This document shows, one piece after another, positions 3,836 to 45,269 of a DNA stretch of 64,000 bases (position 1 is its first letter; the number at the start of each line of letters is the position of its first letter). Both the position numbers and the translations under genes were made by a program. Location: positions 72,816 through 136,815 of the forward strand of contig CAWBJH010000001.1 in the NCBI GenBank assembly GCA_963789115.1, written 5' to 3'. A model generated the notes under the pieces. That model searched no databases, was not told the origin of the DNA, and was given only the letters and a program-made list of their open reading frames with translations. Source of the stretch: an uncultured delta proteobacterium. Its GTDB lineage: Bacteria > Desulfobacterota > Binatia > Binatales > Binataceae.

Positions 3836-3852
3836 TCGCTTGCTCCCTCTGC

Positions 3853-5298: not shown

Positions 5299-5322
5299 CG
5301 ACGCCGCTACCTTAGTTAAATC

Positions 5323-18781: not shown

Positions 18782-18871
18782 GTTGATTGGATGCTCCAGT
18801 GGGGGTAAAGTCGTTTTCAATTACAGCGAGAATGGGAGGTAACGAGGTAGCCAAATAGCAATGTAACGGAG

Positions 18872-19045
18872 AGTAGCGCCAGGACTCACAATCGTGAGTT
18901 GACGAGGTGGAAGCTTATCGAACAATTCGGCGGATGGCTTCCCGGTTCCACGATCGTTAGAGGCGGACAAAACCTGCGGGCGACCGCGCGACAACAACCG
19001 TCTCAAGTGGGCGTAGCAAATCGCTCCGCTACGACCTTCTAAACT
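18872..19045 (+). ncRNA. glmS_ribozyme: glmS ribozyme (GlcN6P-dependent self-cleaving riboswitch). The predicted cleavage site is between A18875 and G18876
   Basis: AGCGCCAGGACU(P1: CACAAUCGUGAG)UUGACGAGGUGGAAGCUUAUCGAACAAUUCGGCGGAUGGCUUCCCGGUU matches the glmS ribozyme core. It is immediately 5' of glmS and the local GC is lower. Confidence 0.85.
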
Positions 19046-20998: not shown

Positions 20999-21039
20999 GG
21001 CGCGCGCAGCGGCTGCGCGCCGCGGTGCGGGCAATCGGC

Positions 21040-22901
21040 ATAGGGGGTAGCGGCGGACCGCTACTCCCCTGCCACACCACCGGACATGCGGGTCCGCATC
21101 CGGCGGTTCGGAAGGTTGAGGTTAATCGGCAAGGCGAGGAACTCCGAGTCGGTCGTAGTAGCGGATGGTGAGTCCGGTCTGGACCAGCTTGGCAGCGCGA
21201 TACCACCAGCGCCGTCCGGTGACAGCGGCCTCGGCCGCCGCGACGTGAGGCAGTCCGAGTCTACGCAGCTCGGTGTAGATTTTGGGGCCACGCTTCCACT
21301 GCTTGAGTTGCAGCGCACGCAGACGATGGCGAATCCACTTGTCGTGGTCAGCGAAGGCTCCCGGTGTATCCGCCAGTTGGAAGTACTGCTTCCATCCCGG
21401 CAGATAGCTCCGTAGCTCCGCCACCACCGTGCGCAGACTTCGCCCGCCGCTGCGCCGGGTAATCTGGCGCACCCGTTGCCTGAGCATCGCGGTGGCCTTG
21501 GGAGCGACGCGGCGCATGACCGCACCGCCCTTGCCGTACCAGAAGCTGAAGCCAAGCAAGCTCCGCTTCGATACCGGCGCCACCGCGCTCTTTTCGCGGT
21601 TGACTCGTAGCCGGAGCCGCGCGTACAGACGCTCCAGCGCCGTCATTACCCGCTCGCCCGCGCGCTTGGACCGCACGTACACATTGCAGTCGTCGGCATA
21701 GCGGACGAAGGCATGGCCGCGCTTCTCCAACTCCTTGTCGACCTCGTCGAGCAGCAGATTGGCCAGCAGCGGTGACAGTGGTCCGCCCTGCGGCGTCCCC
21801 TCCAGGCGCTCCACCACTACCCCGTTGGCCATCATGCCGGCCTTGAGGTAGCGGCGGATTAATCGCAGCAGGCGGCTGTCGCCGACTCTTCTCGCCAGCC
21901 TTCCCATCAGCACATCGTGATTGACGCGGTCGAAGAATTTCTCCAAGTCCACGTCCACCACCCAGCGCCGGCCTTCCCTGACGTAGCGCTGCGCGGATAA
22001 AACCGCGTCGTGGGCGCTGCGCCCCGGTCGAAAGCCGAAGCTGTGCTCCGAGAAGCTGGGGTCGAATAGCGGCTGCAGCACCTGCAGGATGGCCTGTTGG
22101 ATAAGCCGGTCGAGCACGCACGGGATGCCCAGTTCGCGCATCCCGCCGCCCGACTTGGGAATCTCCTGCCGCCGCACCGGTTTCGGCTGGTAGGTGCCGC
22201 CCAGCAGTTGCTCGCGCACCCCTGACCAGCGCTCCATCAAGCATTGCGGCAGTTCTTCCACTGTCATCCCATCGACCCCGGGGCTGCCCCGGTTCTCCCG
22301 CACCCGCGCCAACGCCGCCTTGACGTTGCCGCGCGCGACCACCTGCTCCATCAGGTGGTCGTCTCCCGAGCGCACCTTCCCGTTCGTCATCGTCGGCGCT
22401 TCGCCACTTCGCCCAGCCCTCGGAGCTTCACTCCTGGGCTTGAACGCAAGTTCCGCTTGCGCGGAGTTCCGGCGCCTGGCGCGGTTCGGACTCACGATGG
22501 TTTCGCTCTCCCTTCCGTTCGGCCCTTCACCAACTCGGCTTTCAAGGCCCTGCCCTCTCCGGCTGGCTACTACGGCCTCGGCTGACTTCTCGCGCCGCCT
22601 TATGGCGTCACCCTTCCAGGCGCAGGGCGAGATCTCCCCAGGTAAGACTCCGTGACCTTCCCCGCACAACCGCCGGATCTACGCAGTGGCTCCTTGGCCG
22701 CGAGGGCTTCGCGGTCTTTTGCCCGCTCGCCCTGAGCCACCGCGCCTTGTATCCGATTCCTGTTCGTCGGCTCGCGGGTTTGCTCCACGCTTCTTTCAGC
22801 GATTGCCTCGCGGCTCATCGCCTTGCGCTTCGCTAGTGCTCGCTGCGGTCTGCTCACACAGGGGACTTTCACCTCACAAGTCACGCGTCGTGCTGGGCAC
22901 A
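21040..22901 (-). mobile_element. Bacterial class C (IIC) group II intron, about 1.86 kb, with boundaries approximate at the 3' end
   Basis: The 5' GUGUG lies directly after the U-tract of a rho-independent terminator. The RT/maturase ORF is internal. Domain V- and VI-like hairpins lie downstream of the ORF at about 21030-21095. Confidence 0.75.
21122..22390 (-). CDS. Group II intron reverse transcriptase/maturase, about 422 aa, with no endonuclease domain
   Basis: RT motifs including YADD and a C-terminal X/maturase region. The start is set to MTNGKVRS. The upstream part of the long ORF covers intron RNA domains I-III. Confidence 0.85.
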   Translation of the reverse strand: MTNGKVRSGDDHLMEQVVARGNVKAALARVRENRGSPGVDGMTVEELPQCLMERWSGVREQLLGGTYQPKPVRRQEIPKSGGGMRELGIPCVLDRLIQQAILQVLQPLFDPSFSEHSFGFRPGRSAHDAVLSAQRYVREGRRWVVDVDLEKFFDRVNHDVLMGRLARRVGDSRLLRLIRRYLKAGMMANGVVVERLEGTPQGGPLSPLLANLLLDEVDKELEKRGHAFVRYADDCNVYVRSKRAGERVMTALERLYARLRLRVNREKSAVAPVSKRSLLGFSFWYGKGGAVMRRVAPKATAMLRQRVRQITRRSGGRSLRTVVAELRSYLPGWKQYFQLADTPGAFADHDKWIRHRLRALQLKQWKRGPKIYTELRRLGLPHVAAAEAAVTGRRWWYRAAKLVQTGLTIRYYDRLGVPRLAD

Positions 22902-22940
22902 CAAAAACGGGCGGGCGGCGGATTCTTCCGCCGCGCGCCC
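22902..22940 (-). terminator. Rho-independent terminator of the lipoprotein gene, which is also the IIC intron target hairpin
   Basis: GGGCGCGCGGCGG-aagaauc-CCGCCGCCCGCCC followed by UUUUUG, then the intron 5' GUGUG. Confidence 0.7.
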
Positions 22941-23016
22941 GAGACTGGATTTCCGCTGCAGCTCCGGCAACTGGACGCGCCCTCCGGCCTTGAGGGCTTG
23001 ATCGCCCTACCTTTTC

Positions 23017-23376
23017 CTACCGGAGGTTCTGCTTGGGGACGAAGCCCTGGTAACCTTTGAAGGGCCCTTCGAGCAATTCGACGCGAGCGCCCACTGAATC
23101 TCTCGCGATTATCCTGACCCGCGTCGCCTGCTCCGCGTCTTTGGACTCCCCGCCGCGCACCATCCCGTCCAGCATCGACACGAAGCTCCTCTGGCCATCG
23201 GTCATCGGGCCTTTCATCGCCCTTCGAATGTCAAGCGCGGCCTTGTAGATTTCCTCGTTCTGATAGACTTTGACCGTATGCTCGTCCCTGCCGGCAACTA
23301 ATCGATGGCTGCATCCGCATGCGCCAAGCGCGATTACGAGAACGGCCACACTGAGACCAAACTTGCGAAAACCCAT
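23017..23376 (-). CDS. Small lipoprotein, hypothetical
   Basis: MGFRKFGLSVAVLVIALGACGC lipobox, 119 aa. Confidence 0.6.
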   Translation of the reverse strand: MGFRKFGLSVAVLVIALGACGCSHRLVAGRDEHTVKVYQNEEIYKAALDIRRAMKGPMTDGQRSFVSMLDGMVRGGESKDAEQATRVRIIARDSVGARVELLEGPFKGYQGFVPKQNLR

Positions 23377-23552
23377 TTTTCATTTCCCCGCTCGATAAGA
23401 AGTCATACGCGAGTCGCTCGAGCTTCATGCATATGAGGGATCAAAACCGCCGGCGGACACACCGTTGCCGGGTGCCCGCCGGTGCCCTCCTGCCGAAGAG
23501 TGCGCAGGCTTACGTTACAGTTGTAATGCCGTCTGCGACGCCTCTCCGCTGC

Positions 23553-24509
23553 TTATTGGGCCAGCTTGGAATGCACGGTACCTGACGCCCAAAGATCGCC
23601 GAAGACACCGAACGACTCTGTGACCGGCGACGTCGTCCGTGGCAGGTTGGCGAACTCCACGTGTGAAACAATGTCGACCTTCGGGTCGTTGCAGCACTCG
23701 GCGAAAGAATTTGCGCTGCCGCAAATGCCGAAGGCCGAAATATAGAAGTGGATCACCGCTGACGAGCCAGAATCGTTGGCGAAAGGAAGAGTCGCCGTCT
23801 GTACGGCCTCCGTACTGGTGACGTAGCCGCCGCCGCCGGGATTGAGGCAGGTTCCGTTTCCCGCACCAGTGCAACACGCATACGGCGCACCAGCTCCGGT
23901 GCAGCTACTGTTACTGGTGGTACCCAACCACTGGTTGGCGCAGTTGTACGGTGATTTGGTGCCGGGCAAAGTCCCAGTGCATTCCAGTTTGCATCTCGCA
24001 TCCTCCGAGGCGGCCTTGGGGCCCCCGCAGATCCGAGTGGTGAAGCCTGTGGCGGTCGGGTTAAAAACCTGAATGTCCTTCGTTTCGGTGAATGGGCCGT
24101 CGTAGAACACATTGAAGTCCCCTTCGCCGACGAGACTTCCGGCACCGTCGTAAGTGATCTGCATCACTCCGCTCATTTTGGAATCCGGCCCGAACACAAG
24201 GCCCTTGAGCACGGCAGCCGCTTCCGATTCGCTAACCCCGGTAGGAAAGGTGAGGCTTGAGCTGCACTTTCCGTGCGTACCAAAGTCCACACCCAGTTCG
24301 TGTACGGCAGCCTGGAGGCCCGCGCTCGGGGCTCCAAACGCGGACCCCGAAGCCGAGTCGTTCAGGTCCGCTTCAAACTCTGAAACGTAGGTCCCGGTGA
24401 TATTGGCGTCGCTGAACGTGTTCGCCGCCATCGCCTCAACCGGGGTCATCACCGACCCAGCGAATGCCGCAGCCAGAACACAACAGAACAGTTTCCTGAT
24501 TTTCATCAA
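23553..24509 (-). CDS. Secreted Cys-rich protein of unknown function, with about 20 Cys in the mature part. The gene is lower in GC than its surroundings
   Basis: Signal peptide MMKIRKLFCCVLAAAFAGSVMTPVEAMA, then Gly/Ser/Thr/Cys-rich stretches (CTGAGAPYACCTGAGNGTC, AECCNDP). No family recognised. Confidence 0.6.
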   Translation of the reverse strand: MMKIRKLFCCVLAAAFAGSVMTPVEAMAANTFSDANITGTYVSEFEADLNDSASGSAFGAPSAGLQAAVHELGVDFGTHGKCSSSLTFPTGVSESEAAAVLKGLVFGPDSKMSGVMQITYDGAGSLVGEGDFNVFYDGPFTETKDIQVFNPTATGFTTRICGGPKAASEDARCKLECTGTLPGTKSPYNCANQWLGTTSNSSCTGAGAPYACCTGAGNGTCLNPGGGGYVTSTEAVQTATLPFANDSGSSAVIHFYISAFGICGSANSFAECCNDPKVDIVSHVEFANLPRTTSPVTESFGVFGDLWASGTVHSKLAQ

Positions 24510-24841
24510 AAGCTCCTTTCGGTGTTCATTGCGCCGGAAAATTCCGTGGCCTTCGCTTTTAGCAAGAGATGATGACTGGCCGGTGACGCCGTCGCGAATC
24601 TTCTATGAAGCGACGATCACGAAAGGGTGACTCCTTTTGACCCAGGTTTAGGCCGCTAATTGTTGCGCTCGCTTCTGCCCTGGAATCTTCGCGTGAAAAT
24701 CTTAGTGCTGTCTTCTTCCAAGCGTCACAAGTACGTAACCACCCCTCGCTAAGCTCAACCCGTACATCGTTCGGCGGCCGCGGGGGGCGCGGGGTGACCT
24801 CCCTGCCCGTGCCCCTCGAGCGGCCAGCCGTAGCAGGAGGC

Positions 24842-26722
24842 GACATGAAACCAAGAGTCTCGAAAGCCTTTGTGCCGAGCGCAGGGTCGGGGGTTGTTCG
24901 CCGCGCGATCCTGGCGGCGGCGCTGATCTGGTTGGTGGCGTCGTGGTCGACGGCGGTATGGGCGACTATCATACAGGGTGACTTCTCGATCTTCGGGGAT
25001 CTCAGCTCAAGATGGTCTGGGCGATGGGGTGAGGGCTCGGCGCAGGGCGGCACCTCGTCGGATATATCCAATGCCATTCCCGGCAACGCGCCGACCGAGA
25101 CCGGCGGCAGCTTCGACTTCAGTCACTGGGATCTGGTCCAGGCCCGCCAGATAGTCAACGTGCGGCCCGACTATCATTTCGTCAAGAATTACAAGCTGCT
25201 GGACCGGATCGATTTGCCGCTGCTCAAGGACGCGGACTTCTTCGCGATCTATCGCGGCTGGTACGATGCGTTCCCTGATCTCAAGCCTGACGGGCGCGCC
25301 GAGACCGCCCGCGACTGGAGCGCTTACACCGAGAAGGACAAGATAGACGAGTTCGAGCGCGACGACCTGCGGGAATACTATGGTCAGCTCAACTTCAGCG
25401 ACAACTTCTCGATGCGAGTGGGCAAGCAGCAGGTGATCTGGTCGGAGGCCGACGCGCTGTCGGGCACCGACGTAACGAATCCCACCGACTATCGCTATCA
25501 CTGGAACCATTTTGAGTCGGCTGAGGACCTGCGCGAGAACCTGCGGATGGTGAAGCTCGACTACATCCTGCCCGACTTCCTGAAGACCGCCAGCAACCAG
25601 CTTGAACTCTTCTGGATCCCCGGCGACTGGGAACACGGTGCGCTCATCGTCAATAGTACCGAAGATGCGCGCAGCCCGTACGTGGCCCCGGTGGCGCTGA
25701 ATGCGGCCAGCTATGAAAACCAGTCCGGGGAACCCTACCGCAGCCAGCTCTTTGGCGACGACGGCGCGGCGCCGATGACAACGCTCGGGCCTCTAAAGAC
25801 GTGGTTTCTCGACCTGCACACCATCTATTACCAGAACAAAATTCCCAACTCGCTTGCCAGCAGCGAGGGTGGCGCTCGCTACTCGACCCTACTACCGATC
25901 GGGAATGGCCTCCAGACCAGCTTGATCTGGCTATACGAGGCGCGCAGCGACAAGGAAGGATTTTGCCTGACCTGCGGGATGCCGGCCGGGGCGCAGCCCT
26001 TGTTCAAGTCGGGCGGTCCCCCCGGCTCCTACCTGCTTTTCAATGTGTGGGACTACGGTCCGCCACGCATGTCGAATAACGTGGGGACCATCCGGGTGCC
26101 CGTGCAGATCGAGTATGTCCGCCAGAATTACTTCGACATGACTGGGACCTACTATGACAAGGATTTGACCGATATGGTCTATCGCTACGACTTCCTCTAT
26201 TCTCCCAAGATCGGTTCGGCCTTCTTCTGCGGAAGCCAGAAACAGCCGAGCGGAGTCGTTTCAGGCTCCTACTTCGATGACAGCTGTACCCGCTGGACCG
26301 AGTTCACGCGCTGGATCGTGGCCGCCGACCGGCCGACCTACATTCCGTGGCTGTCCAAGCAGCACACCTTCCTCACCGCGCAGAACACGGTGACCTGGTA
26401 TCCGGATCGGCACCAGAACGCGGTGCCTTACTTTCCCACCGACGTTGGAAAGCTGCGCGAGATCAGTAACTTTTTCTTCCTGGGGGCGACAAACTGGCTA
26501 ATGAACGGCCAGTGGACGGCGCTGAACGTCTTGGAATGGGATTGGGACAACAATTGCGGTGCGCTCTCCTCGACAAACTCATACCGTTACTCGGAAAATG
26601 TGCTGTTCGGCCTCAACGCGGTTTGGTACGTGGGACGAAGCGGCCGCTTTACCGACCCCTACGCGCTCAGCCGCGCCCAGCGGGACAACGAACTCGAGTT
26701 TCGCTTCACTTATGAACTCTGA
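24842..26722 (+). CDS. DUF1302-like outer-membrane protein, predicted beta-barrel
   Basis: About 625 aa with a signal peptide, rich in aromatic and Gly/Asn/Asp residues like beta-barrel proteins. The start is set at the ATG after AGGAGG. The assignment is from memory of the family and partner context. Confidence 0.5.
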   Translation, partial: DMKPRVSKAFVPSAGSGVVRRAILAAALIWLVASWSTAVWATIIQGDFSIFGDLSSRWSGRWGEGSAQGGTSSDISNAIPGNAPTETGGSFDFSHWDLVQARQIVNVRPDYHFVKNYKLLDRIDLPLLKDADFFAIYRGWYDAFPDLKPDGRAETARDWSAYTEKDKIDEFERDDLREYYGQLNFSDNFSMRVGKQQVIWSEADALSGTDVTNPTDYRYHWNHFESAEDLRENLRMVKLDYILPDFLKTASNQLELFWIPGDWEHGALIVNSTEDARSPYVAPVALNAASYENQSGEPYRSQLFGDDGAAPMTTLGPLKTWFLDLHTIYYQNKIPNSLASSEGGARYSTLLPIGNGLQTSLIWLYEARSDKEGFCLTCGMPAGAQPLFKSGGPPGSYLLFNVWDYGPPRMSNNVGTIRVPVQIEYVRQNYFDMTGTYYDKDLTDMVYRYDFLYSPKIGSAFFCGSQKQPSGVVSGSYFDDSCTRWTEFTRWIVAADRPTYIPWLSKQHTFLTAQNTVTWYPDRHQNAVPYFPTDVGKLREISNFFFLGATNWLMNGQWTALNVLEWDWDNNCGALSSTNSYRYSENVLFGLNAVWYVGRSGRFTDPYALSRAQRDNELEFRFTYEL

Positions 26723-26759
26723 GCCCGGAGCTGGGTGGAGCAGGTGGTGCGATGCCGTC

Positions 26760-27475
26760 CGGAAAACTGCCGCATCCCAGATTTCGACCGGAAGCGACGC
26801 CGAGGAACGGCTGTGGTTTGCGGTCCTCGCACAAGGACTTAAGGACTTCATCAGCGGCGGACGCGACGCTCGAGGTGGCGCCAGGAGCCAGAAGTCTCCC
26901 ACAGCGTGTAGTCGAGACGCCGAACTCTGGCTTTTTGACGACTCCTGGCGAGTTGGCGGCTTTATGTGGGTCGCCGACCTTTGCGCTGTCGACCCCGAGG
27001 TTGTCCGAGGACGGCTGCTCGAGGAAGGTCGCCTGAACGGAGGTGAGACACGGGCTCCAGCCGCATCGCAGCGAAAGTTTCAAGCTCTCCTCGGACCCGT
27101 TCTTCGTCGAGAAGGTTCGCGGCATCGTAGGACTTTATGGCAATCCTCCGGACAAGGCGCTGGTGCTGGGCCTCGACGAAAAGAGCCAAATCCAGGCGCT
27201 GGAATGCAGCCAGGCGGTGCTACCGATGGGGCTGGGCTACGTCGAATGCGCGACCCACGACTACTATTGCCACGGTACCACCACCCTGTTTGCAGCGCTC
27301 AACATTCTGGACGGTTCGGTGATCCGGCAGTGCAAGCCGCGCCATCGTCACCAGGAGTTACTCTTTCATGCAGGGTGGTTCTGCCAGCGGCCAAGTGTCT
27401 CGTCTCGAAAATCGTTTTTCCGCATCCTGCCAGGGCCTGCCAACCACCCAAGGCGAACTCCGGGCTAATCAGTCG
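26760..27475 (+). pseudogene. IS630-family transposase remnant, truncated and frameshifted
   Basis: ...[50 protein letters not shown]... matches the IS630 transposase core. The second half of the DDE domain is missing. Upstream pieces lie in other frames. Confidence 0.65.
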
Positions 27476-27483
27476 CAAGCCCC

Positions 27484-28806
27484 TTACGGTGCCGCTCTGA
27501 CCATCGCCTCCACCGTGCAGAACTGCTTGTCCACAGCGCCCATGTTGATGTACCAGCATTCGCGCTCGGGCGTTTGCTGGCCGGGCAGGTAGCACATCGA
27601 GGCGTATCCGCCCTGAACGTCGTAGGAACCGGCGCCGACAATGAATTCGCGCTTGAAGGGATAGACCGCCACCCTTGCGTCAGGCACCGGACGGTCGCGG
27701 TAGGTCAGCCAGTAGATATGGGTGCGCCAGAGTTGCCCGCGCCGGTCGTAGGTATCGATGTATGGTTCGAACCAGACTTCGGAGTCGAGGTACACGACCG
27801 TGCGCGAGTCGAGCGCGCGACTGGCCTGGCCGACATCGCGCCGCGGCGTGGCCTCGACCACGTACATGTGGCGCAACTCCCAGTTCTCCGGGCAGGCGGA
27901 GGCGCCGCCGTCGTACGGGCAGGTTACCTCGGGCGAATGAATGGCGTGCACGCAGCCGAGCATCTCCTTTTCCCCCAGGAAGCGGTAGTCGTACTGCTCG
28001 GTCTTGGGATTAAAGCCCGAGTAGTGGTCAGCGTCATGCGTCTGGGCAGAACTGGCGGTGCTCAGGATCGACTCGTCGAGCCGGCGCACGCGCCGCGAAC
28101 CCGGCGACCAAGTCCAGCTATCGTCGCCCCGATTCGGGTCCGCGTAGCGAAAGCGGATAAGTCCGTCACCGCGGTCTTCGGCGGGCGCGAGGATCGGATA
28201 AAGCGCGAACAGCCAGAGCCGATTGGACTGCTTGAAGTCGGGATCGGCAGGCAGCGGCTCGACCTCGGTACGCCCCACCAGGTTGTAGCCCGCGTAATGA
28301 CCAACCACGATACGCTCGACGACTCGCCTTGAGCGGCCGGGAGAAACGTACTCGCTCGGGCAGTCGAAAAAGCGCAGGTCGTAGTCGTCGGACCCCGCAG
28401 GGCGGAAAACGTTGTTCCAGATGATTTTGGTTGCGGCGTACGGATCGTTAACGTCGATCAGCGGGAAGGGCTGACCAGCGACATAGCCGACGAGGCTGCG
28501 ATGTGCAGAGTCGAGGCTCACCTGGCTCGAGTACTTTTCGGTCGCTTCCGTGTACGGCGGCGGCCAATCGACTCGCTCGGTCGGCACGATGTTCATCCGC
28601 ATGTCGTGCTTCACCATGTACAGCACGCCTGGTGACACCAAATCCTTGACCCGGTCGGCGTCTTGCGCCGAGATGACATCGCCGGGTCTGACGCCGGCCT
28701 GCGCGCCCGCGCCAAGGAGCGCGGCTTCGACGAGCAGAGCGGCCCCGCCGAGGAGCAATTTGCGTCTCCAATGCTGAATCATACTGGCTTGCCCTCCGAG
28801 CACCAT
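27484..28806 (-). CDS. DUF1329-like periplasmic protein with a LolA-like fold, partner of DUF1302
   Basis: 440 aa with a signal peptide. The N-terminal pattern is ISAQDADRVKDLVSPGVLYMVKHDMRMNIVPT. There is a GAGGAAA RBS. It sits 3' of macAB on the same strand. Confidence 0.5.
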   Translation of the reverse strand: MVLGGQASMIQHWRRKLLLGGAALLVEAALLGAGAQAGVRPGDVISAQDADRVKDLVSPGVLYMVKHDMRMNIVPTERVDWPPPYTEATEKYSSQVSLDSAHRSLVGYVAGQPFPLIDVNDPYAATKIIWNNVFRPAGSDDYDLRFFDCPSEYVSPGRSRRVVERIVVGHYAGYNLVGRTEVEPLPADPDFKQSNRLWLFALYPILAPAEDRGDGLIRFRYADPNRGDDSWTWSPGSRRVRRLDESILSTASSAQTHDADHYSGFNPKTEQYDYRFLGEKEMLGCVHAIHSPEVTCPYDGGASACPENWELRHMYVVEATPRRDVGQASRALDSRTVVYLDSEVWFEPYIDTYDRRGQLWRTHIYWLTYRDRPVPDARVAVYPFKREFIVGAGSYDVQGGYASMCYLPGQQTPERECWYINMGAVDKQFCTVEAMVRAAP

Positions 28807-28960
28807 GAGAGATTTTCCTCAAGGTCTTGGATTCCCGCTGCTGTCGCGGCAATGGCGCAGTACCCCAGCCTTGAGGGTTGGTCCCGTTTAGCCAATTGCG
28901 CGAGACGGGTTCAACCACGAATGTGTGAACGTTTCGTGTCTTGCGCGAGACCTGGATCGG

Positions 28961-31102
28961 TCACTCGTAGCGGAGGGCCTCGATCGGGTTCAGCATCGAG
29001 GCTTTGTACGCCGGGTAATAGCCGAAGAACACGCCGACCGCGGCAGCGAAGGCGAATCCGCCCACGACCGCCGCCGGCGAAATCAGCGTCGGCCATTGCG
29101 CCAGCGCCGACAGCACCTTGGAGGCGACTATGCCCAGGGCTACGCCGGCAAGCCCGCCCATCGCGCTGAGCAGCGCCGACTCGACCAGGAACTGCAACAG
29201 GATGTGCAGGCGGCGCGCCCCGATCGCCATCCGAATCCCGATCTCGCGCGTGCGCTCGGTCACCGACACCAGCATGATGTTCATGATCCCGATCCCGCCC
29301 ACCAGCAGCGAAATCGAGGCGACCGCCGCCAGCAGCAGCGTCATGACCCGGGTGGCGCTCTCGGAGGCCTGCGCGATTTCGTTGAGACTGCGCACGGTGA
29401 AGTCGTCGTCCTGCCCGGGTTGAATGTGATGGCGGCGATGCAGCACCTGCTGGACCTCGTCCTGCGCCGCGCCGACATCCTGGGCGTCACGCGCCTTGAT
29501 GAAGATCATGTTGACGACCCCGGAGATCTTGGGCGGGCTCCCGAACGGGCTGATGATTGTGGTACCCGACTGGTACACCGGGTTCTGGGCAGTCGTGATC
29601 GGGACGTTGAGGTAAGGATTCAGGACCGGATTGGTCGACCCCGTGGTGCTCGACGGCACGCTGGCGCTGACCTGTGAGGTGCCCAGCACCTTTCGCTCGG
29701 CCGTACTGAACGGAAGGAGCACGACGTTGTCCTGGTCCTGGCCGTAGCCGGATTGGCCTTTGACCGCGAGTACTCCCACCACGCGCAGCGGAAAATTCTT
29801 GACCCGGACCGCGGTGCCGACCGGATTTTCGCCCGGCACGTAGAGATTGTTCACCACCGACTGGCCGAGCAGGCATACCGGCGCTGCGCTGCGCGTCTCC
29901 TCGTCCGTGAAGTTGCGCCCGGCGGCGACCGGCCAGTCGCGGATCGTGAGGTAGGCGGGCGTCGTGCCGTTGATGCCGGTGCTCCAGTTCTGGTTGCCGT
30001 AGACGACCTGCGTCACCTGGCGGTCGATATAACTCACCGCGGCAACCGTGTGCACTTCCTTCTGGATCGCCTCGGCGTCGGCCACGGTCAGGGTCGAGGT
30101 ACTGCCGGAGCCGACGCGCACGCCGCTGGACGTGGTGGCGCCGGGCAGGATGACCAGCAGGTTCGTTCCCAAGCTCTGGATCTGCTGCTCGACCGAGTAG
30201 CGCGCGCCGTCACCCACCGCAACCATCGCGATCACCGCGGCTACGCCGATGAAGATACCGAGCATCGTGAGCACCGCGCGCGTCTTGTTGCGGTTAAGCG
30301 CCCGCGAGGCCGCGCTCAGCGCCATCGCGCCGAACGTCCACGCCCCGCCGCCCCGTCGCGCCGCCGCCGCGTCGGCCGGCGCCGCGATTGACGGCGCGGC
30401 GGCGGGGGCGATTTGGCCCTTGCGCTGGTCCGAGACAATCGCCCCGTCGCGGAAAGTCACCACGCGATCGGCGTAAGCGGCAACGTCGGCATCGTGGGTC
30501 ACCACGATCACCGTGATGCCGTGCTCGCGGTTCAGCCGGCTGATGATTTCCATGATCTCGCGCGAGTTGGTCGAGTCGAGATTGCCGGTGGGCTCGTCGG
30601 CCAGCAGGATCGCGGGCTCGTTGACGAGCGCGCGCGCGATCGCGACGCGTTGCTGCTGGCCGCCGGAGAGCTGGTTGGGATTGTTCTGCCCACGTCCCTG
30701 GAGCCCGAGCATTTCGAGCAGCTTCTCGGCGCGTTCCTTTCTGTCGCTGTTCCATTGCGAGGAGTAAAACAGCGGCAGCTCGACGTTCTCGAGCGCCGTC
30801 GTCCGCGAGAGCAGGTTGAAAGTCTGAAAGACGAAGCCGATCCGCCGGCTGCGGACCGCCGCCAATTCCTGTTCACTGAGCGAGGCGACGTCGACGCCTT
30901 CGAGCAGGTAGCTGCCCCCCGTCGGCTGGTCCAGGCATCCGATGATATTCATCAACGTGGACTTGCCCGAACCCGAGGCGCCCATGACCGCGACAAACTC
31001 GCCGCGCTCCACGCGCAGGTTCACGCCGATGAGCGCGCGCACCTCGATCTCGCCCATCTGGTAGGTCTTGTCCAGACCGACGATCTCGATAACCGGAACC
31101 AT
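28961..31102 (-). CDS. macB: MacB-type ABC transporter with fused ATPase and FtsX-like permease
   Basis: Walker A motif GASGSGKST, LSGGQQQRVAIARAL signature, then a permease with a large periplasmic loop and four TM helices. Confidence 0.85.
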   Translation of the reverse strand: MVPVIEIVGLDKTYQMGEIEVRALIGVNLRVERGEFVAVMGASGSGKSTLMNIIGCLDQPTGGSYLLEGVDVASLSEQELAAVRSRRIGFVFQTFNLLSRTTALENVELPLFYSSQWNSDRKERAEKLLEMLGLQGRGQNNPNQLSGGQQQRVAIARALVNEPAILLADEPTGNLDSTNSREIMEIISRLNREHGITVIVVTHDADVAAYADRVVTFRDGAIVSDQRKGQIAPAAAPSIAAPADAAAARRGGGAWTFGAMALSAASRALNRNKTRAVLTMLGIFIGVAAVIAMVAVGDGARYSVEQQIQSLGTNLLVILPGATTSSGVRVGSGSTSTLTVADAEAIQKEVHTVAAVSYIDRQVTQVVYGNQNWSTGINGTTPAYLTIRDWPVAAGRNFTDEETRSAAPVCLLGQSVVNNLYVPGENPVGTAVRVKNFPLRVVGVLAVKGQSGYGQDQDNVVLLPFSTAERKVLGTSQVSASVPSSTTGSTNPVLNPYLNVPITTAQNPVYQSGTTIISPFGSPPKISGVVNMIFIKARDAQDVGAAQDEVQQVLHRRHHIQPGQDDDFTVRSLNEIAQASESATRVMTLLLAAVASISLLVGGIGIMNIMLVSVTERTREIGIRMAIGARRLHILLQFLVESALLSAMGGLAGVALGIVASKVLSALAQWPTLISPAAVVGGFAFAAAVGVFFGYYPAYKASMLNPIEALRYE

Positions 31103-31117
31103 CGCGGTCCCTGACCC

Positions 31118-32320
31118 TCAATGCGGAAAGTGAAGTGACGAAGGGGGTGGAGGACCGCCCGTGCGGCCGGCCTGGACCTGCTCGGTCACGACCGCGTCGC
31201 CTGGCTTCAGGTCGCCGCTTATGACTTCGACGTTGCTGCCGTCGTCGAGCCCGGTGACGATCGAGACCCGCTTGAGCTGTCCACCCTGCTCGACATATAC
31301 GCCGGCCCGCCGCGAGGTCTGGGGGGCCTCCGAATTGGCCGCGGCCGCGTGTTGATGCTTCATGCGCGCGAAGCGCAGCGCCGGCACCGGTACGCACAGC
31401 GCATTGTCGCGCCGCGCGGTGACAATCGTCACGTTGGCCGTCATCCCGGGCTTGAGCAGCAACTCGGGGTTGGCGACATTGAGCACCACGTCATAGGTAA
31501 CCACGTTCTGCACCGTGATCGGCGCCTGCCGCACCTGGCCAACGACGCCCTCGAACACGCGATCCGGGTACGCATCGACCCGGAAATCTGCCGGCTGTCC
31601 GAGTTGCAGGTTGCCGATATCGGACTCGCTCACGTTGGCGTCGACCTGCATCTTGGTCAGGTCCTTCGCGATCAGGAACAGGGTCGGGGTCTGAAAGCTC
31701 GCGGCCACGGTCTGCCCGACGTCGACGTTGCGCGAGACCACGGTACCATCGACCGGAGAGATGATGTTCGTATAGTCGAGCTGGACCTGCGCGTCGCGCA
31801 GATTAGCGTGCTGCTGCTGGATATTGGCCCGGTCGAGCGCAACCTGGGCTATAGCCTGATCGTAGGCGCTGCGGGCGCTGTCAACCGTGTCCTGCGACAC
31901 CGCTTCCACCTTGAGCAGATCACTGTCGCGCTCGAAGGTGATTTTCTTGTAAGCCATGTCAGCCAGGTCCTTGCCGAGCTGGGCCTTGGCGTTGGCCAGC
32001 GCGGCCGCCATTTCGTCCACTTTGACCTGGAACGGGCGTGGGTCGATCTTGGCGATCAGTTGGTTCTCTTTGACCGGCGAGTTGAAGTCCGCGTAGAGCG
32101 TCTGAATCGGCCCCGAGACGTAGCTGCCGACCTGCACAACGATCACCGGGTTGACGGTGCCGGTTGCGATCACGGCGCGCACTATCGAGCCGCGCGTGAC
32201 CGGCGCGGTAACATACGTGGCCGCGGGAGAGCTGAAGCGCCAGAAGTAAATGGCCAACGCCAGCAGAATCACAGCGCCGGCCCCCGCCCAGAGCGTGATT
32301 TTCGAGGTCGGACGGATCAT
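31118..32320 (-). CDS. macA: Periplasmic adaptor subunit, HlyD/MacA family membrane fusion protein
   Basis: N-terminal TM helix, coiled-coil, and beta-barrel and lipoyl domains of efflux adaptor proteins. It is immediately upstream of macB. Confidence 0.8.
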   Translation of the reverse strand: MIRPTSKITLWAGAGAVILLALAIYFWRFSSPAATYVTAPVTRGSIVRAVIATGTVNPVIVVQVGSYVSGPIQTLYADFNSPVKENQLIAKIDPRPFQVKVDEMAAALANAKAQLGKDLADMAYKKITFERDSDLLKVEAVSQDTVDSARSAYDQAIAQVALDRANIQQQHANLRDAQVQLDYTNIISPVDGTVVSRNVDVGQTVAASFQTPTLFLIAKDLTKMQVDANVSESDIGNLQLGQPADFRVDAYPDRVFEGVVGQVRQAPITVQNVVTYDVVLNVANPELLLKPGMTANVTIVTARRDNALCVPVPALRFARMKHQHAAAANSEAPQTSRRAGVYVEQGGQLKRVSIVTGLDDGSNVEVISGDLKPGDAVVTEQVQAGRTGGPPPPSSLHFPH

Positions 32321-32489
32321 CAGGTTATCAGGTTATCCAGGGCGGACTCGGCCCGGGATGCGCCAACTCGTCAGCAATCATAATATACGTTAGACGATTG
32401 CGCTACGCGCGCGTTTCATCTTGACCCGCGCTGCCGTCCCGGTCAGGAGTCGGCGCCGCGTTGACAGGAGTCGGGAGGTCCTCGCGGCT

Positions 32490-33674
32490 ATGACGGACAG
32501 CGCCCCGCTTTCGGGAATTAAGGTGATAGACCTGACCCGCTACCTGGCGGGACCCTTCTGCACGCAGATCCTAGGCGACTACGGCGCCGAGATTCTCAAG
32601 ATCGAGCCGGTCAGGGGAGCGCGCACCGAGCTGGGTGACGCCCCGGGCCGCGACAGTTACTTCTTTCTGAGCGCGAACCGCTCCAAGAAGAGCGTGCTGA
32701 TCGACGCCAAGCGTCGCGAGGGCCTCTCGGTGCTCAAGCGGCTTGCCGAATCCGCCGATGTAGTGGTGGATAATTTCCGTCCGGGTGTGATCGAGGCAAT
32801 GGGCCTGGGATACGACGAGCTGGCCGCGCGCAATCCGCGCATCATCTGTGCCAGCATCTCCGGATTCGGGTCGAGCGGGCCGCTGCGCGACTTTCCGGGC
32901 TTCGACCAGATCGCGCAGGGGATGTCGGGTCTGATGAGCGTGACCGGGACGGCGGAGAGCGGTCCGACGCGCGTGGGGATCGCGATCTGCGATCTGCTGG
33001 CCGGAATCTTCGCCGTGCAGGGGATAGTGCTGGCGCTCGAAGCGCGCCATCGCACAGGCCGCGGCCAGCGCGTGGAGACATCGCTGCTCGAGTCCATCGT
33101 GAGCATCCTGAGCTGGTCGGCCGGGATCTACTTCGAGACCGGAAGGACTCCCGCGCCCCAGGGCAACCATCATCCACTCGCGTCTCCGCACGGCGTGTTC
33201 CGCGCCTCGGACCGGCCGTTCAATATTGCGGTCGGCAACGAGGCGATGTGGGCGAAATTCGTTGAGCTGATCGGACGCCCGGAGCTGAAGTCGGATCAGC
33301 GCTTCACCGGCGTTGGGCAGCGGCTCAGGAATCGCGCCGCGCTGACTGACGAAATCAACCGGGCACTGGCGGCTCATCCGGCGGAGTATTGGATCGACCT
33401 TTTGAACCGCGAGGGGATTCCCTCTGGGCCGATTCTGACCATCGAGGAGATGTTCAACCATCCGCAGATCGCGGCGCGTGAGATGCTGCTGAAGATGCCG
33501 CATCCGGGGCGCGGCAGCTTTATGACCACCGGACTCCCGGTAAAGCTCTCGGCCACGCCGGGCCGGATCACTCGCCCGCCCATCGCGGGCGAGCATACCG
33601 AGGCGGTGCTGAGCGCGCACCGATTTAGTGCGGAAGAGATAGCAAAGCTCCGCGCCGCCGGCGTGATTGGGTGA
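32490..33674 (+). CDS. CoA-transferase family III (CaiB/BaiF-like)
   Basis: GIKVIDLT...AGPFC N-terminus and full-length family III CoA-transferase pattern. Confidence 0.8.
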   Translation: MTDSAPLSGIKVIDLTRYLAGPFCTQILGDYGAEILKIEPVRGARTELGDAPGRDSYFFLSANRSKKSVLIDAKRREGLSVLKRLAESADVVVDNFRPGVIEAMGLGYDELAARNPRIICASISGFGSSGPLRDFPGFDQIAQGMSGLMSVTGTAESGPTRVGIAICDLLAGIFAVQGIVLALEARHRTGRGQRVETSLLESIVSILSWSAGIYFETGRTPAPQGNHHPLASPHGVFRASDRPFNIAVGNEAMWAKFVELIGRPELKSDQRFTGVGQRLRNRAALTDEINRALAAHPAEYWIDLLNREGIPSGPILTIEEMFNHPQIAAREMLLKMPHPGRGSFMTTGLPVKLSATPGRITRPPIAGEHTEAVLSAHRFSAEEIAKLRAAGVIG

Positions 33675-37025: not shown

Positions 37026-38873
37026 TCAGGCGCTAAGGAAGAACATGGCGATGTCGGCGTTCAGGTTCGGGTCGTCGTGTACCGCTTCACCAGATTCGCT
37101 GTTCAAGCAGATCTCGCGCAGCACCCGGATGCCGATAGCCTCGCAAAGTTCTCGGACGTCAATGATCGACGCGAATCGACGATTCGGAGTGTCGTACCAT
37201 TCGTAGCCGTAGAGCCCCGGAACCGTGGGCGAGCGACCCTGTTCGTAATACATCTGCCGGAGCTTACGATACGCGAAATTGGGAAAGCTCACGATGCCCA
37301 GCCCGCCGACGCGCGTGATCTCGCGCAGGATGCCCTTGGTGTCGGTGATGCATTGCAGGGCCTGGGAGAGCACCACCACGTCGAACTGCTTGTCGCGAAA
37401 ACTGTTCAACCCATCGTTGAGATCCGCGTTGATGACGTTGAGGCCGCGCGAGACACATTCGAGGACGGCCCGCTCGTCCACCTCCAGGCCGACCACGCGG
37501 CCATGACCCTTGGCAATGAGCTCGGCCATGAGCTGGCCGCTGCCGCATCCCAGGTCCAGGACACTGCTGCCGGGCGGAATCTCATCCACCAGGATTCGCA
37601 GGTCCACGCGGTCGCCTTGAAAAAAGGAGCTCGATGACAGCTGCGGCGCTGACGTTTCATGACGGTCGCCGCCGAGGGGCGGTCCGGTCAGGTTGTCGAG
37701 GAACCCGCGGACCAATCCGCCGTAGGTGTCGACGCTGTCCGCGAGCAGGAACGCATCGTGGCCGCTGGCGCTCGTGACCTCGCAATACGACACGGGCTTG
37801 TCGAGCGCCAACAAAGCGTCGGCGATCTGCCGGCCTTGCTCCGGCGGGAACAGCCAATCGCTCGAGAAGCTTACCACCAGCCACCGGCATTGCGACGGAG
37901 CGAGCGCGGCCTGCAACGTTGTCGGCGTGTCGCCGACGTTGAACAAGTCCATCACCATCGACAGGGTTACGTAGCTGTTGGCGTCGAACCGCTCGACGAA
38001 TCTGTCGCCCTGATAGGCCAGATAGGAGCCAACCGAGAACTTCTTTTCGAACGCGGTCGGCACGGCCCGCGGGCGCAGCCGGCTTGGGTCGAACTTGGCG
38101 GTCATCGACTCGGGCGACAGGTACGTGATGTGCCCGAGCATGCGGGCCAGCGCGAGACCGACGGCGGGTCCCTGCCCGCCGTAGTAGCGGCCGCCGTGGT
38201 AGTGCGGGTCGTGCATGACGGCGTTACGTGCCACCACGTCGAACGCCAACGCCTGGGTGGTGAGCCGGGGCGCTGTCGCGATCGCCACGCACACGCGGAC
38301 CCGGTCGGGATGGCGGATTGCCCAGGTGATAGCCTGGTGCCCGCCCATCGACCCGCCGATTACTGCGCGCAGCTTGCGGATGCCAAGATGGTCGATCAGC
38401 CACCGCTGCACTTCCACGGTGTCGGCGGTGGTTATGGTGGGGAAGTCCGACGCGTACGGCTGACCGGTGAGGGGATCGATACTGTTCGGGCCGGTAGTGC
38501 CGCGGCATCCGCCAAGGATGTTGGAGCAGACGACGAAGTACCGCTTGGTGTCGATGAAACCGCTCGGCCCGACGACCACGTCCCACCATCCGGGAAGGTC
38601 CGCATCGTCGTGGCGGGCCACGTGCGAATCGCCGCTGATAGCGTGGCAGATCAGCACGGCGTTGTCTCCGGCCTCGCTCAGCTCTCCATAAGTCTCGTAG
38701 GTGACACTGACTTCCGGCAGTTCGCCGCCGAGTTCCAGTTTCAGCGGGGTGTCGAACGTGACGTGCCTGGCATGCAGCAACGGCGCGGCGGAGCGGACCG
38801 CGTCGCTGCTATCGAAATCGCGCGGCGGCTTTGTCTGATGGCCGAGCGGCTGCGTGGTCCGAGATTTCACCAT
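37026..38873 (-). CDS. metX: Homoserine O-acetyltransferase MetX fused to a MetW methyltransferase-like domain
   Basis: N-terminal alpha/beta-hydrolase MetX with GGSMGG. C-terminal MetW-like SAM-methyltransferase domain with LDLGCGSG. Confidence 0.85.
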   Translation of the reverse strand: MVKSRTTQPLGHQTKPPRDFDSSDAVRSAAPLLHARHVTFDTPLKLELGGELPEVSVTYETYGELSEAGDNAVLICHAISGDSHVARHDDADLPGWWDVVVGPSGFIDTKRYFVVCSNILGGCRGTTGPNSIDPLTGQPYASDFPTITTADTVEVQRWLIDHLGIRKLRAVIGGSMGGHQAITWAIRHPDRVRVCVAIATAPRLTTQALAFDVVARNAVMHDPHYHGGRYYGGQGPAVGLALARMLGHITYLSPESMTAKFDPSRLRPRAVPTAFEKKFSVGSYLAYQGDRFVERFDANSYVTLSMVMDLFNVGDTPTTLQAALAPSQCRWLVVSFSSDWLFPPEQGRQIADALLALDKPVSYCEVTSASGHDAFLLADSVDTYGGLVRGFLDNLTGPPLGGDRHETSAPQLSSSSFFQGDRVDLRILVDEIPPGSSVLDLGCGSGQLMAELIAKGHGRVVGLEVDERAVLECVSRGLNVINADLNDGLNSFRDKQFDVVVLSQALQCITDTKGILREITRVGGLGIVSFPNFAYRKLRQMYYEQGRSPTVPGLYGYEWYDTPNRRFASIIDVRELCEAIGIRVLREICLNSESGEAVHDDPNLNADIAMFFLSA

Positions 38874-42655: not shown

Positions 42656-44990
42656 ATGGACGTCCCATCGATGAGCCCCTATCAGGCGATTCGCGACCAA
42701 TTCTACGGCAACCGTCTGCTGTTCGGCGATCCCGCCGACCGCGGCGTGGTCGCGATTGAGATCGTCCCGCCCAATCAGGTCGAGGCCGTAAAGCGGGTCG
42801 AGGGGAAAGTGGTCCGCGAACGCCGTCCTTTGAGGCTCTTCGCGGTGCTCGCCGACCGCGCGCTGCTCGAGGGTTTCAAGGGTCCGCACGCGATAGCGGA
42901 GCTCAAGGGCGACTTCAACTTCCACCACCTGGCGACCTTCGCCGCGCTCGATTCGCTCGAGGCTGCCAAGCGTCATCTCCGGCGCGTCAGCGGCAAGCCG
43001 CCGGGCGCTCGCGACGCGCCCTACCTGGTGCTTGCCGATCCAGTTGAGCAGCACCTGATGCTGACCGGGACGACATTCTTCATGGGGATGGAATTCGCCC
43101 AGCTCCATCGGATGCAGATCGATATCGAGACTTACATCAGTCCGGGCTTCGAGTTCCCCTCTGCCGCGCGCGAGGGCGACCGCGTGGTCGCAATCGCGAT
43201 CACCGACTCGGCCGGCTTCGAGCGCGTGCTGTCGGGGGCTGAGATGGACGAGCGGGCGACGCTCGAGGAGTTCGTACGGATCGTGCGCGAGCGCGATCCC
43301 GACGTCGTCGAGGGCCACAACCTGTTCCGCTTCGACCTCGAGTACCTCGAGGCCCGGGCGTGCCGCCACGGGGTCAGGCTGACGCTGGGCCGCGACGGGA
43401 GCGAGCTCAGCGCGCGTGCCTCGCGGCTCCAGATCGCCGAGCGGGTGATCGCGTATCGCCGCTACGACGTGTGGGGCCGCAGCATTGTGGACACCTGGAT
43501 CCTCGCCCAGCATTACGACATCGCAAGCCGCGAGCTGGAGGGCTTCGGGCTCAAGGAGCTGGCGCGGCACTTTCGTATCGCGCGGCCGGGCCGCGTTTAT
43601 ATCGACCCCTCCCGCATCAGCTCCTACTACGACCATCGCCGCGACGAACTCCTGGAGTACGCGCTCGACGACGCGCGCGAGGCGGGCGCGCTGGCCGAAA
43701 GGCTCGCGCCGAGCTACTTCGTGCAGGCGCAGATCTTCCCGTACTCGTACCAGAACGTTTACCTGCGCGGGAACGCGACCAAGATCGACGCGCTGATGAT
43801 CCGCGCCTACCTGGCCGCGGGCCATTCGATCCCGGCCTGCAACGAACCGCGCGAGGTCGCGGGCGGCTATACGGAGATCCGGCGATGCGGCGTGGCGCGC
43901 AACGTGCTCCATTGCAACGTCACCTCGCTGTACCCGTCGCTGATGATTCAGTACGGGCACGGCCCTGGCGCCGACCGGCTCGGCGTGTTCCTGGAGATGC
44001 TGCGCGGTCTGCGAAGCTTCCGCGTTCAGGCCAAGGCGCTGGTGCGCGAGCTCGAAGGTCTAAAGCGGCGCGACCTCGAGGCGCTCCAGCAGACCTTCAA
44101 GATCCTGATCAATTCGTTCTATGGCTATCTCGGGTTCGCGCTCGGCCATTTCAACGACTTCGCACAGGCCAACGCCGTGACCAGGCGCGGGCGCAACCTG
44201 ATCCGGCGCGCGGTCAAGGAGCTCGAGGCGTGTGGGGCGAGCGTGATCGAAGTCGATACCGACGGTATCTACTTCGTTGCGCCGCCGGGCGCCGACGCCC
44301 AGGCCGCGGCAGACGCACTGATCGGGGCGGTCGGCGCCGCGATGCCCGAGGGGATACGGCTGGAGATCGACGGGTGCTACACCGCGATGTTCAGCTACAA
44401 GATGAAAAACTACGTGCTGCTCGACGAGAGCGGCGTGATGACTATTCGCGGCTCCGGGCTCAAGTCGCGCGGGCTGGAGCGCTTCCAGCGCCGCTTCATG
44501 GAGGAGATGTTCCGGTTGCTCCTGGAGGAACGGCGCGAAGCGATTCCGGCGCTCTTCGAGGAGTACCGACGAAGGCTCGAACATCACGAGTTCGAAATCA
44601 CGGGCCTGATGAAGACCGAGACCTTGCAGGATTCGCTCGAACGTCTACCGCGCCAAGCGAGGCGGCAAGCGCCGCAACGTGTCGGCCGCCTACGAGTTGG
44701 CGCTCAAGTCCGAGCGCCCGTACTTAAGCGGCGACCAGATCTCGTACTACGTGACCGGCCACAGCCCCAAGGTCAAGGTTGCCACGTCGGCGAAGATGGC
44801 TGCGGAATACGACCCGGCCAATCCCGACGAGAACGTCGAATACTACCAGGCCAAGCTCGCGGAGCTTTACCACAAATTCAGACCCTACGTGGAGCGCGAG
44901 GGACTGTTCGCGGCCTCTCTGCTCGAAGCCGCGCCGGAGCCCGAACAGACCGAGATGTTTGGCGCGCCCGCCGCAAACACGAGGGAGTAG
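42656..44990 (+). pseudogene. polB: Family B DNA polymerase (Pol II-like), interrupted by a +1 frameshift at about 44643. Motif A reads N-V-T-SLYPS instead of D-x-x-SLYPS
   Basis: Exo I motif IDIET, Exo II motif HNLFRFD, Exo III motif YALDD, and the KILINSFYG and VDTDG motifs. The C-terminus ...RRNVSAAYELALKS...ISYYVTG continues in another frame (44679-44990). Confidence 0.75.
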
Positions 44991-45022
44991 CGGCATCGGG
45001 TGGCGTTCCGGCGCGGACTCGT

Positions 45023-45045
45023 TTTTCACTTTTCACTTTTCACTG
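45023..45045. repeat. Left inverted repeat flanking the hicBA cassette (TTTTCACTTTTCACTTTTCACTG)
   Basis: AT-rich TTTTCAC iterons. An inverted partner lies at 45755-45775. Confidence 0.6.
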
Positions 45046-45269
45046 CTTAACATGTTTCGCCAATCCAGCACGCGGACCGCGCGGTGTAGCGCGCCACAGC
45101 CGGCGAAGATGCAGACCACCCGCTTTTGCTTTTTTCCCTGCGCTCTGAAAAGTGTCAGAGGGCTGTGCCGCCGGCAGCGACAAAGAACCGTAGGGCAGGT
45201 ATGGTGGGCCGAGCCGGCAAGGGCGATGCGTCGTCGGCGCTGCGGGGTTCAACCGGAGGAGTGTGCACG

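Follow-up and report, generated by a model that had tools for sequence, protein, structure and literature searches.

We have analysed a 64,000-nucleotide stretch of DNA from an uncultured delta proteobacterium of the family Binataceae (assembly GCA_963789115.1, contig CAWBJH010000001.1, positions 72,816 to 136,815 of the forward strand). This whole stretch is called the window here, and positions are counted from its first letter unless another locus is named. Between positions 23553 and 32320, the window carries the genes macA and macB of a MacAB-type ABC transporter and, on the same strand, a gene for a periplasmic protein of the DUF1329 family. Converging on them from the other strand is a gene for a putative outer-membrane barrel related to DUF1302 proteins, with a fragment of an IS630-family transposase gene in between, and a gene for a cysteine-rich (Cys-rich) secreted protein diverges from the barrel gene (Table 1). 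A first reading of the letters alone, hereafter the original prediction, had joined all these genes into one envelope-spanning transport island. With some confidence, we favour a different view of the region, as two unrelated units that were set side by side by mobile elements: a conserved module (27484-32320) and a lineage-specific block.

Table 1. Features of the window treated in the text (aa, amino acids; bp, base pairs)
Feature	Position	Strand	Description
macA	31118-32320	-	Periplasmic adaptor (membrane-fusion protein), 400 aa, N-terminal membrane anchor
macB	28961-31102	-	Fused ATPase-permease, type VII ABC transporter, 713 aa
macB-DUF1329 spacer	28783-28960	-	178 bp; 154 bp with the upstream ATG
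DUF1329	27484-28806 (likely start 28782)	-	Periplasmic protein, LolA superfamily, 432 aa
Family III CoA-transferase	32421-33674	+	PF02515, E = 2e-123; divergent from macA, 100-bp gap
Inserted block	~21034-27483		IS630 fragment, barrel gene, Cys-rich gene and small lipoprotein gene, group II intron
IS630-family transposase fragment	27046-27360	+	Internal fragment; at the junction of the block and the DUF1329 3' end
Barrel open reading frame	24845-26722	+	Predicted outer-membrane beta-barrel, 625 aa, divergent relative within the DUF1302 superfamily; belongs to the inserted block
Cys-rich secreted protein	23553-24506	-	317 aa, signal peptide, 14 Cys, GC 0.59, no known domain; divergent from the barrel gene
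Small lipoprotein (lipo119)	23017-23376	-	119 aa, lipobox LGAC; follows the Cys-rich gene, with a strong terminator hairpin behind it
Group II intron	21034-22899	-	RF02001 (121.6 bits), RF01998, RF00029; left part of the extra DNA

The macA-macB-DUF1329 module of the Binataceae

All genes listed in the original prediction were found, and their coordinates and hidden Markov model matches agreed with the placement of macA, macB and DUF1329 on one strand. MacB matched the Pfam families ABC_tran (E = 1e-33, 116.9 bits), MacB_PCD (E = 6e-50, 170.8 bits) and FtsX (E = 3e-19, 69.8 bits), all above cut-off, and the solved MacB structures 5lil, 5nik and 5gko with E values of 1e-125 to 1e-132, the best match being 5lil (E = 1e-132). 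MacA matched HlyD_D23 (E = 1e-21, 77.6 bits) and TIGR01730 (161.8 bits, cut-off 94.9 bits), and its orthologue in locus L006 matched the helical-hairpin family PF25876. The family domains, the hairpin of the L006 orthologue and the position of the gene directly upstream of macB identify MacA as an adaptor. Since both proteins scored under the cut-offs of the NCBIfam equivalog models (206 bits for MacA against 342 bits in NF008606, and 536.8 bits for MacB against 966 bits in NF007826), they should be taken as family members and not as demonstrated orthologues of the Escherichia coli pump. The match of MacB to 5lil was interrupted at query residues 481-562. The end of the MacB periplasmic domain carries a 45-50 aa insertion rich in Ser, Thr, Pro and Asn (residues ~481-530, window 29510-29660), which is present in 12 of the 12 Binataceae orthologues aligned, with the anchor motifs NPY, VP.T and FG..KI.GVVN, and absent from the solved MacB structures.

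The assignment of the third gene to DUF1329 was upheld by Pfam, with a PF07044 match (E = 6e-48) of 164.4 bits versus a gathering score of 23.1 bits. The protein also matched LolA_like (PF17131) with E = 8e-8 and 32.6 bits versus a gathering score of 30 bits. Comparison with the annotated DUF1329 protein of Aromatoleum by hhalign gave 99.7%, and the search of the PDB with a DUF1329 profile returned weak matches to LolA-like structures (9tp6, E = 0.004). The signal peptide holds no Cys and hence no lipobox. Translation probably starts at the second ATG (28782), because the homologues are 432 aa long.

We have surveyed the neighbourhood of DUF1329 in a scan that took the window protein as query and a single genome for each GTDB species. 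The scan gave 76 loci, essentially all from Binataceae and with 67-80% identity to the query, which were then searched by tblastn with the window proteins, neighbours being judged within 10 kb. A locus counted as assessable (n = 64) if its upstream sequence reached 4 kb or more, or if macB could be seen. In 52 of them (81%), macA-macB lay directly upstream of DUF1329 on the same strand; macB was followed by one to four DUF1329 copies in tandem, and the macAB-linked orthologues were 67-80% identical to the window DUF1329.

The flanks of these three genes differed between groups of loci. In the clade of the window, rpoD and a divergent family III CoA-transferase gene lie upstream and glmS downstream, and in the largest clade an amidohydrolase gene and YchF are found downstream. 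Locus L079 has sulfite reductase and CysH genes upstream and AsnS downstream. The CoA-transferase gene is the steadiest neighbour of the module, adjoining macA in 38 of the 51 listed loci that contain macB; in L026, L028 and L040 its place directly upstream of macA is taken by a cyclopropane-fatty-acid-synthase-like (CMAS) gene, with a fatty-acid desaturase gene also upstream in L026 (span 3363-6234) and L040. Two desaturase genes lie downstream of DUF1329 in L004/L007 (12361-14079). As the core is kept through several flank contexts, the module is not merely a frozen segment of chromosome and the coupling is not accidental. Thus, macA-macB-DUF1329 is a conserved gene module of the Binataceae, present in about fifty species, and the survey bears out the original prediction where it had coupled DUF1329 to a MacAB-type pump. 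Separately, in two loci that lack macAB (L011, 6195-11269, and L025, 6227-11233), DUF1329 paralogues with 76-78% identity directly follow a tandem array of three family III CoA-transferase genes, an order that hints at a tie of DUF1329 to CoA-transferase-dependent catabolism.

The short gaps ascribed to the module hold for macA and macB, which are 15 bp apart, and do not hold for macB and DUF1329, where the gap is 154-178 bp. Orthologous macB-DUF1329 spacers measure 145-355 bp, mostly ~240 bp. The sequence of the window spacer is not conserved among the closest relatives and matches no RNA family in Rfam. It contains the 11-mer GTCTCGCGCAA twice as a direct repeat, 46 bp apart (28860-28950, reverse strand), which could be an operator or a chance repeat. 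Consensus scans found no terminator-like site between macB and DUF1329 in the window, L021 or L034, and the counts of promoter- and terminator-like sites that they gave for the window region were at chance level. Between the first and second DUF1329 copies of L021 (9830-9966) and L034 (11321-11456) lies a strong intrinsic terminator, whose stem is 15-16 bp long with 12 G-C pairs, and several promoter-like sites are found 3' of it, ahead of the second copy. With such signals between the copies, the extra DUF1329 genes look like separate transcription units, and the pattern fits a putative single unit made of macA, macB and the first DUF1329 gene.

The block between DUF1329 and glmS

The barrel gene and DUF1329 are convergent and 761 bp apart, with the IS630 fragment between them, as the original prediction had described. 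It had further proposed that a DUF1302/DUF1329 pair was split or inverted here by the insertion sequence, and this proposal finds no support in the orthologous loci. The distance from the DUF1329 stop codon to the glmS stop codon is 6485 bp in the window versus 22-579 bp in six orthologous loci. DNA similarity to the relatives ends at these two stop codons, and the spacers cannot be aligned. The genes of the block have a GC content of 0.59-0.60, against 0.64-0.66 for the neighbouring genes, as well as a lower GC content at third codon positions, and remains of mobile elements are found at both of its ends. No homologue of the barrel, the Cys-rich protein, lipo119 or the IS630 fragment was found within 10 kb at any of the 76 DUF1329 loci. 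From the short stop-to-stop distance in the relatives and the lack of a DUF1302-like gene at the 76 loci, we infer that the block was inserted in the lineage of this genome and that the barrel gene was brought beside DUF1329, not split from it.

At one end of the block, the IS630 fragment corresponds to positions 107-209 of the 299-position model NF033545 (E = 2.6e-14, 53 bits, under the cut-off of 100 bits). It is a remnant and not a complete DDE transposase, in line with the decay noticed before; no more IS630 sequence was found in the other reading frames, and no second copy within the window. At the other end, the group II intron has an intact reverse transcriptase/maturase gene (21122-22669) with RVT_1 and GIIM domains and ends at ~21034, leaving about 35 bp to the glmS stop codon. 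Its 5' end, GTGTG (GTGTGCCCAGCACGACGCGTGAC), comes right after the T-run of the lipo119 terminator, a site that agrees with the terminator-targeting habit of class C introns. A sequence like the intron 5' end also follows a DUF1329 terminator in L052 (11357-11384); a 28-bp match of the window to L052 had been considered as native spacer and was rejected, given this resemblance. In L058 (8199-9745), a reverse transcriptase gene with 82% identity lies between tandem DUF1329 genes.

The barrel protein has a signal peptide and the C-terminal motif FRFTYEL, and its gene a good ribosome-binding site. Its naming as a DUF1302 protein stood in part. The protein matched nothing in Pfam and NCBIfam even at E <= 10, and thus did not reach the PF06980 gathering score (23.2 bits); among 41 members of the barrel family, three reached PF06980 at E <= 0.01, over the first ~220 model positions. 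The search of 1.84 billion representative proteins with a profile of 41 barrel homologues gave, beyond its own tight family, full-length matches with E values of 1e-28 to 1e-13, and all ten distant matches that were scanned were PF06980 members (55-80 bits). In hhalign, the barrel profile and the annotated DUF1302 protein of Aromatoleum EbN1 aligned with 97% probability (E = 8e-11), the alignment being centred on the motif LREYY..LNF.D..S.R.GKQQV.W.E.D. By these profile comparisons, the predicted barrel is a remote, divergent relative of DUF1302. An open frame on the same strand (26559-27500, region 26700-27497: ...ERLWFAVLAQGLKDF...AELWLFDD...) extends across the 3' part of the barrel gene and across the IS630 fragment, matches no family and is unlikely to be a gene.

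We have also looked at the barrel from its own side. A metagenome scan with the single barrel protein as query found no relatives; the scan with an alignment of the barrel family gave 80 metagenomic loci whose barrel homologues were 48-57% identical, 32 of them with at least 2 kb on each side. DUF1329 was nearby in 2 of the 80 loci and macAB in none, which speaks against the role of outer-membrane tier that the barrel had been given in the proposed machine. A further barrel-DUF1329 pair was seen in L003. The DUF1329 copies beside barrel homologues are 52-53% identical to the window DUF1329 and belong to a different paralogue group. At least three more paralogues of the barrel (P0003, P0004 and P0007) are found in the source genome.

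The Cys-rich gene had been described as secreted and of lower GC content, and its signal peptide, its 14 cysteines and its GC content agree with this. Its family is small (14 database matches), and the search of the PDB with the family profile found nothing. The motifs ITYDGAGS, RICGGP, SPYNC, GGGGY, HFYISAFG.C and SFA.CCNDP are kept among its members. Homologues of lipo119, 50-56% identical, are encoded directly after the Cys-rich homologues, and the context elsewhere runs MPAB_Lcp_cat, Cys-rich protein, ~118-aa lipoprotein, then P450, MscL and PMT_2. In L165 (8001-11541), the Cys-rich and lipoprotein genes are followed on the same strand by a gene for a 674-aa barrel homologue (54% identity); L168 (1568-3005) has the pair without the barrel, and L167 (5764-7122) has a decayed pair. 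As far as gene order tells, the conserved partner of the Cys-rich protein is the predicted small lipoprotein, sometimes with a DUF1302-like barrel, and not MacAB, whose cargo or accessory it had been thought to be. These three proteins (barrel, Cys-rich protein and lipoprotein) probably make up an outer-membrane cassette of their own, which is not a conserved part of the MacAB-DUF1329 system. The island thus consists of two units that mobile DNA has joined, and neither the barrel nor the Cys-rich protein is a fit basis for deducing what the pump does.

Other features of the window lie outside these two units. A full-length glmS ribozyme is found upstream of glmS (18864-19014, forward strand; RF00234, 84.3 bits, E = 1.8e-18). 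The flanking housekeeping region has a family B DNA polymerase gene (42656-45148, forward strand), also seen near rpoD in L006, and an open reading frame for a fused alpha/beta-hydrolase (MetX-like)-MetW protein (37026-38873, reverse strand).

Mechanism and rival explanations

Transporters of the MacB type work by mechanotransmission on substrates of the periplasmic side and move no substrate across the inner membrane. In the module, ATP-driven movements of the MacB periplasmic domain would act on a hydrophobic or lipid-like molecule at the periplasmic side of the inner membrane, and DUF1329 would be a soluble carrier that either delivers the molecule to the pump or collects it there, a step resembling that of LolA with LolCDE or of CusF with CusCBA. 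The hairpin-bearing MacA suggests a TolC-like exit duct; if MacA docks one, a duct encoded elsewhere would provide the exit. The tandem and diverging DUF1329 copies suggest several ligand specificities, and the recurring lipid-modifying and acyl-CoA genes beside the module point weakly to fatty-acyl-type ligands. In its full form, this proposal would make macA-macB-DUF1329 a new class of type VII ABC machine. Its MacB-type extractor would hand over a cargo that is a lipid or another hydrophobic molecule, but no lipoprotein, to large LolA-like DUF1329 carriers; these, having diversified through tandem duplication, would bring it across the periplasm, perhaps as far as DUF1302-type barrels encoded elsewhere. 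We regard the proposal in this full form as unlikely.

Several observations weigh against a working MacAB-DUF1329 system. The link is drawn from gene order and sequence, and its evidence comes from one family, the uncultured Binataceae. The survey was queried with DUF1329, so that its counts give the share of DUF1329 loci with macAB and not the reverse. Twelve of the 64 assessable loci are dispersed solo DUF1329 paralogues (68-78% identity) without macAB, and in L075, apparently also in L068, DUF1329 stands beside rpoD without macAB. No TolC-like protein was found among the window open reading frames tested. The AlphaFold2 model of DUF1329, made from a 38-sequence alignment of 68-80% identity, had a mean confidence (pLDDT) of 53.7, too poor for a cavity or fold search. 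An independent promoter for DUF1329 inside the spacer is possible, because the spacer is long (145-355 bp), the largest clade has a conserved AT-rich block in it, and L034 has one promoter-like match there. On the side of the inserted block, the association of barrel, Cys-rich protein and lipoprotein was seen in two loci only, the window and L165, which counts against a cassette of the three.

Much of this would suit an ordinary MacAB efflux pump standing beside unrelated DUF1329 genes, which would have their own promoter and whose products would work elsewhere, for example as binding or chaperone proteins for catabolic pathways. The long spacer with its AT-rich block and promoter-like matches speaks for it, as do the second tandem copies with their own terminator and promoter-like sites and the solo paralogues of the same subfamily in 12 of 64 loci, including those that follow three CoA-transferase genes in L011 and L025. 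Against it, the order is kept in 81% of the assessable loci, no terminator-like site separates macB from the first DUF1329 gene in the scanned loci, and the trio persists in three or more flank contexts in which rpoD, glmS and even the CoA-transferase gene are replaced. On balance, mere neighbourhood seems to us a serious but doubtful explanation. Adjacency is also all that would speak for DUF1329 being no carrier but a cargo that MacAB secretes through a TolC-like duct, much as enterotoxin STII leaves the periplasm via MacAB-TolC. Export of periplasmic peptides by MacAB-type pumps is established for the family; however, DUF1329 has ~45 kDa and is probably folded, so that a TolC-type duct would be too narrow for it, ligand carriage is what its LolA-like domain suggests, and solo paralogues exist without a pump. 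We find this explanation scarcely credible.

The three-tier relay of the original prediction, with MacAB as engine, DUF1329 as carrier, the adjacent DUF1302-type barrel in the outer membrane, the Cys-rich protein as cargo or accessory and the pair split by IS630, gains from the relationship of the barrel to DUF1302 and from the joint working of DUF1302 and DUF1329 in other bacteria. DUF1329 paralogues stand beside barrel homologues in L003, L088 and L119, and one of the barrel paralogues of the source genome (P0003, P0004 or P0007) could serve in trans. However, the adjacency is confined to this genome (barrel at 0 of 76 DUF1329 loci, macAB at 0 of 80 barrel loci), and the barrel gene sits in a 6.5-kb insertion that orthologous loci do not have. 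The barrel-paired DUF1329 proteins are of the other paralogue group (52-53% versus 67-80% identity for the macAB-linked group), and the Cys-rich protein has a conserved partner and context of its own. We thus hold the relay to be very unlikely, and retain the reading of the region as a conserved macA-macB-DUF1329 module beside an unrelated, lineage-specific block.

Relation to known systems and meaning of the module

DUF1329 genes have been described in four-gene sets with DUF1302, YCF48 (COG4447, BNR) and MMPL/RND genes, which show cofitness in Shewanella, Kangiella and Pseudomonas; DUF1302/DUF1329 sets are required on fatty esters in Pseudomonas putida. AmeABCD of Castellaniella defragrans is linked to monoterpene metabolism, and its RND protein AmeD was characterised as an efflux transporter; a "Nanopod" cluster showed high expression in a culture that degrades benzene. 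We inspected three plasmid loci of Proteobacteria, and each carries the full DUF1302/DUF1329/YCF48/MMPL set. The Binataceae module shares with AmeABCD-type systems the DUF1329 family, tied there to hydrophobic substrates (monoterpenes, fatty esters), but its engine is a MacAB-type ABC pump instead of an MMPL/RND protein, with no adjacent YCF48 or DUF1302 barrel gene, so that the replacement of the usual RND partner noted by the original prediction stands. In the window itself, the barrel and DUF1329 genes are convergent with the insertion-sequence fragment between them, and no YCF48 or MMPL gene was found among the open reading frames tested. The original prediction had also equated AupA and AupB with DUF1302 and DUF1329; the authors of the AupA work call this protein FadL-like and name neither family. 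A literature lead on PahS/PahP proved irrelevant.

The closest functional likeness would be to LolCDE-LolA, where a MacB-superfamily ABC transporter is likewise associated with a soluble periplasmic protein of the LolA superfamily; in the module this association is by gene linkage, and the LolA-like nature of DUF1329 by PF17131 and weak profile matches. By analogy, a hydrophobic moiety would be extracted at the cost of ATP and then carried by a chaperone. The differences are that Lol has a separate LolD and a LolC/LolE heterodimer, whereas the ATPase and permease are fused here and match MacB best, not LolC/E; that the module has a MacA adaptor and Lol has none; and that the carrier is a 432-aa DUF1329 protein, about twice the size of LolA (~200 aa) and often in two to four tandem copies. 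With MacAB-TolC, the module shares the domain architecture of MacA and MacB, the macA-macB order and the MacA hairpin (in the L006 orthologue), and it differs in its sub-cut-off equivalog scores, the 45-50 aa MacB insertion, the downstream DUF1329 partner and the absence of a TolC gene nearby. CusCFBA offers, from general knowledge, the analogy of an operon-linked soluble carrier that could feed a tripartite pump, but its engine is of the RND type, its substrate is a metal and its folds are unrelated.

The relay had been put forward as not described before; a relay of a MacB-like ABC transporter, a LolA-like protein and an Omp85 barrel was already predicted for Borrelia BBJ23-BBJ29 (PMC13078400). 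That cluster is plasmid-borne and without MacA, has a small LolA-like carrier in place of DUF1329, and has Omp85 where the Binataceae have no barrel or a DUF1302-like one. In the literature searched, we found no description of MacB together with DUF1329 or DUF1302; as far as this search goes, the MacAB-DUF1329 pairing is undescribed and differs from the known DUF1302/DUF1329/YCF48/MMPL sets.

Proteins of the DUF1329 and DUF1302 families occur widely among degraders of hydrocarbons, terpenes and fatty esters; their mutants show strong phenotypes, and no biochemical role is known for them. A second, independent type of engine with DUF1329, MacB-type in place of MMPL/RND, would narrow that role. 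The MacB-type engine acts on substrates of the periplasmic side, and its pairing with DUF1329 favours a periplasmic protein that carries hydrophobic ligands; an esterase or a factor for barrel maturation would be less likely. Periplasmic partners of type VII ABC transporters are named as established for LolCDE-LolA, FtsEX-EnvC and YbbAP-TesA, and the module would extend the short list of such partners (LolA, EnvC, TesA, MacA/TolC). The practical value is limited, with organisms that are uncultured and a mechanism that is at present inferred. If the proposal is true, the Binatota would have a Lol-like route for small hydrophobic molecules, and a role defined for DUF1329 in the module would carry over to the widespread DUF1302/DUF1329/MMPL systems.

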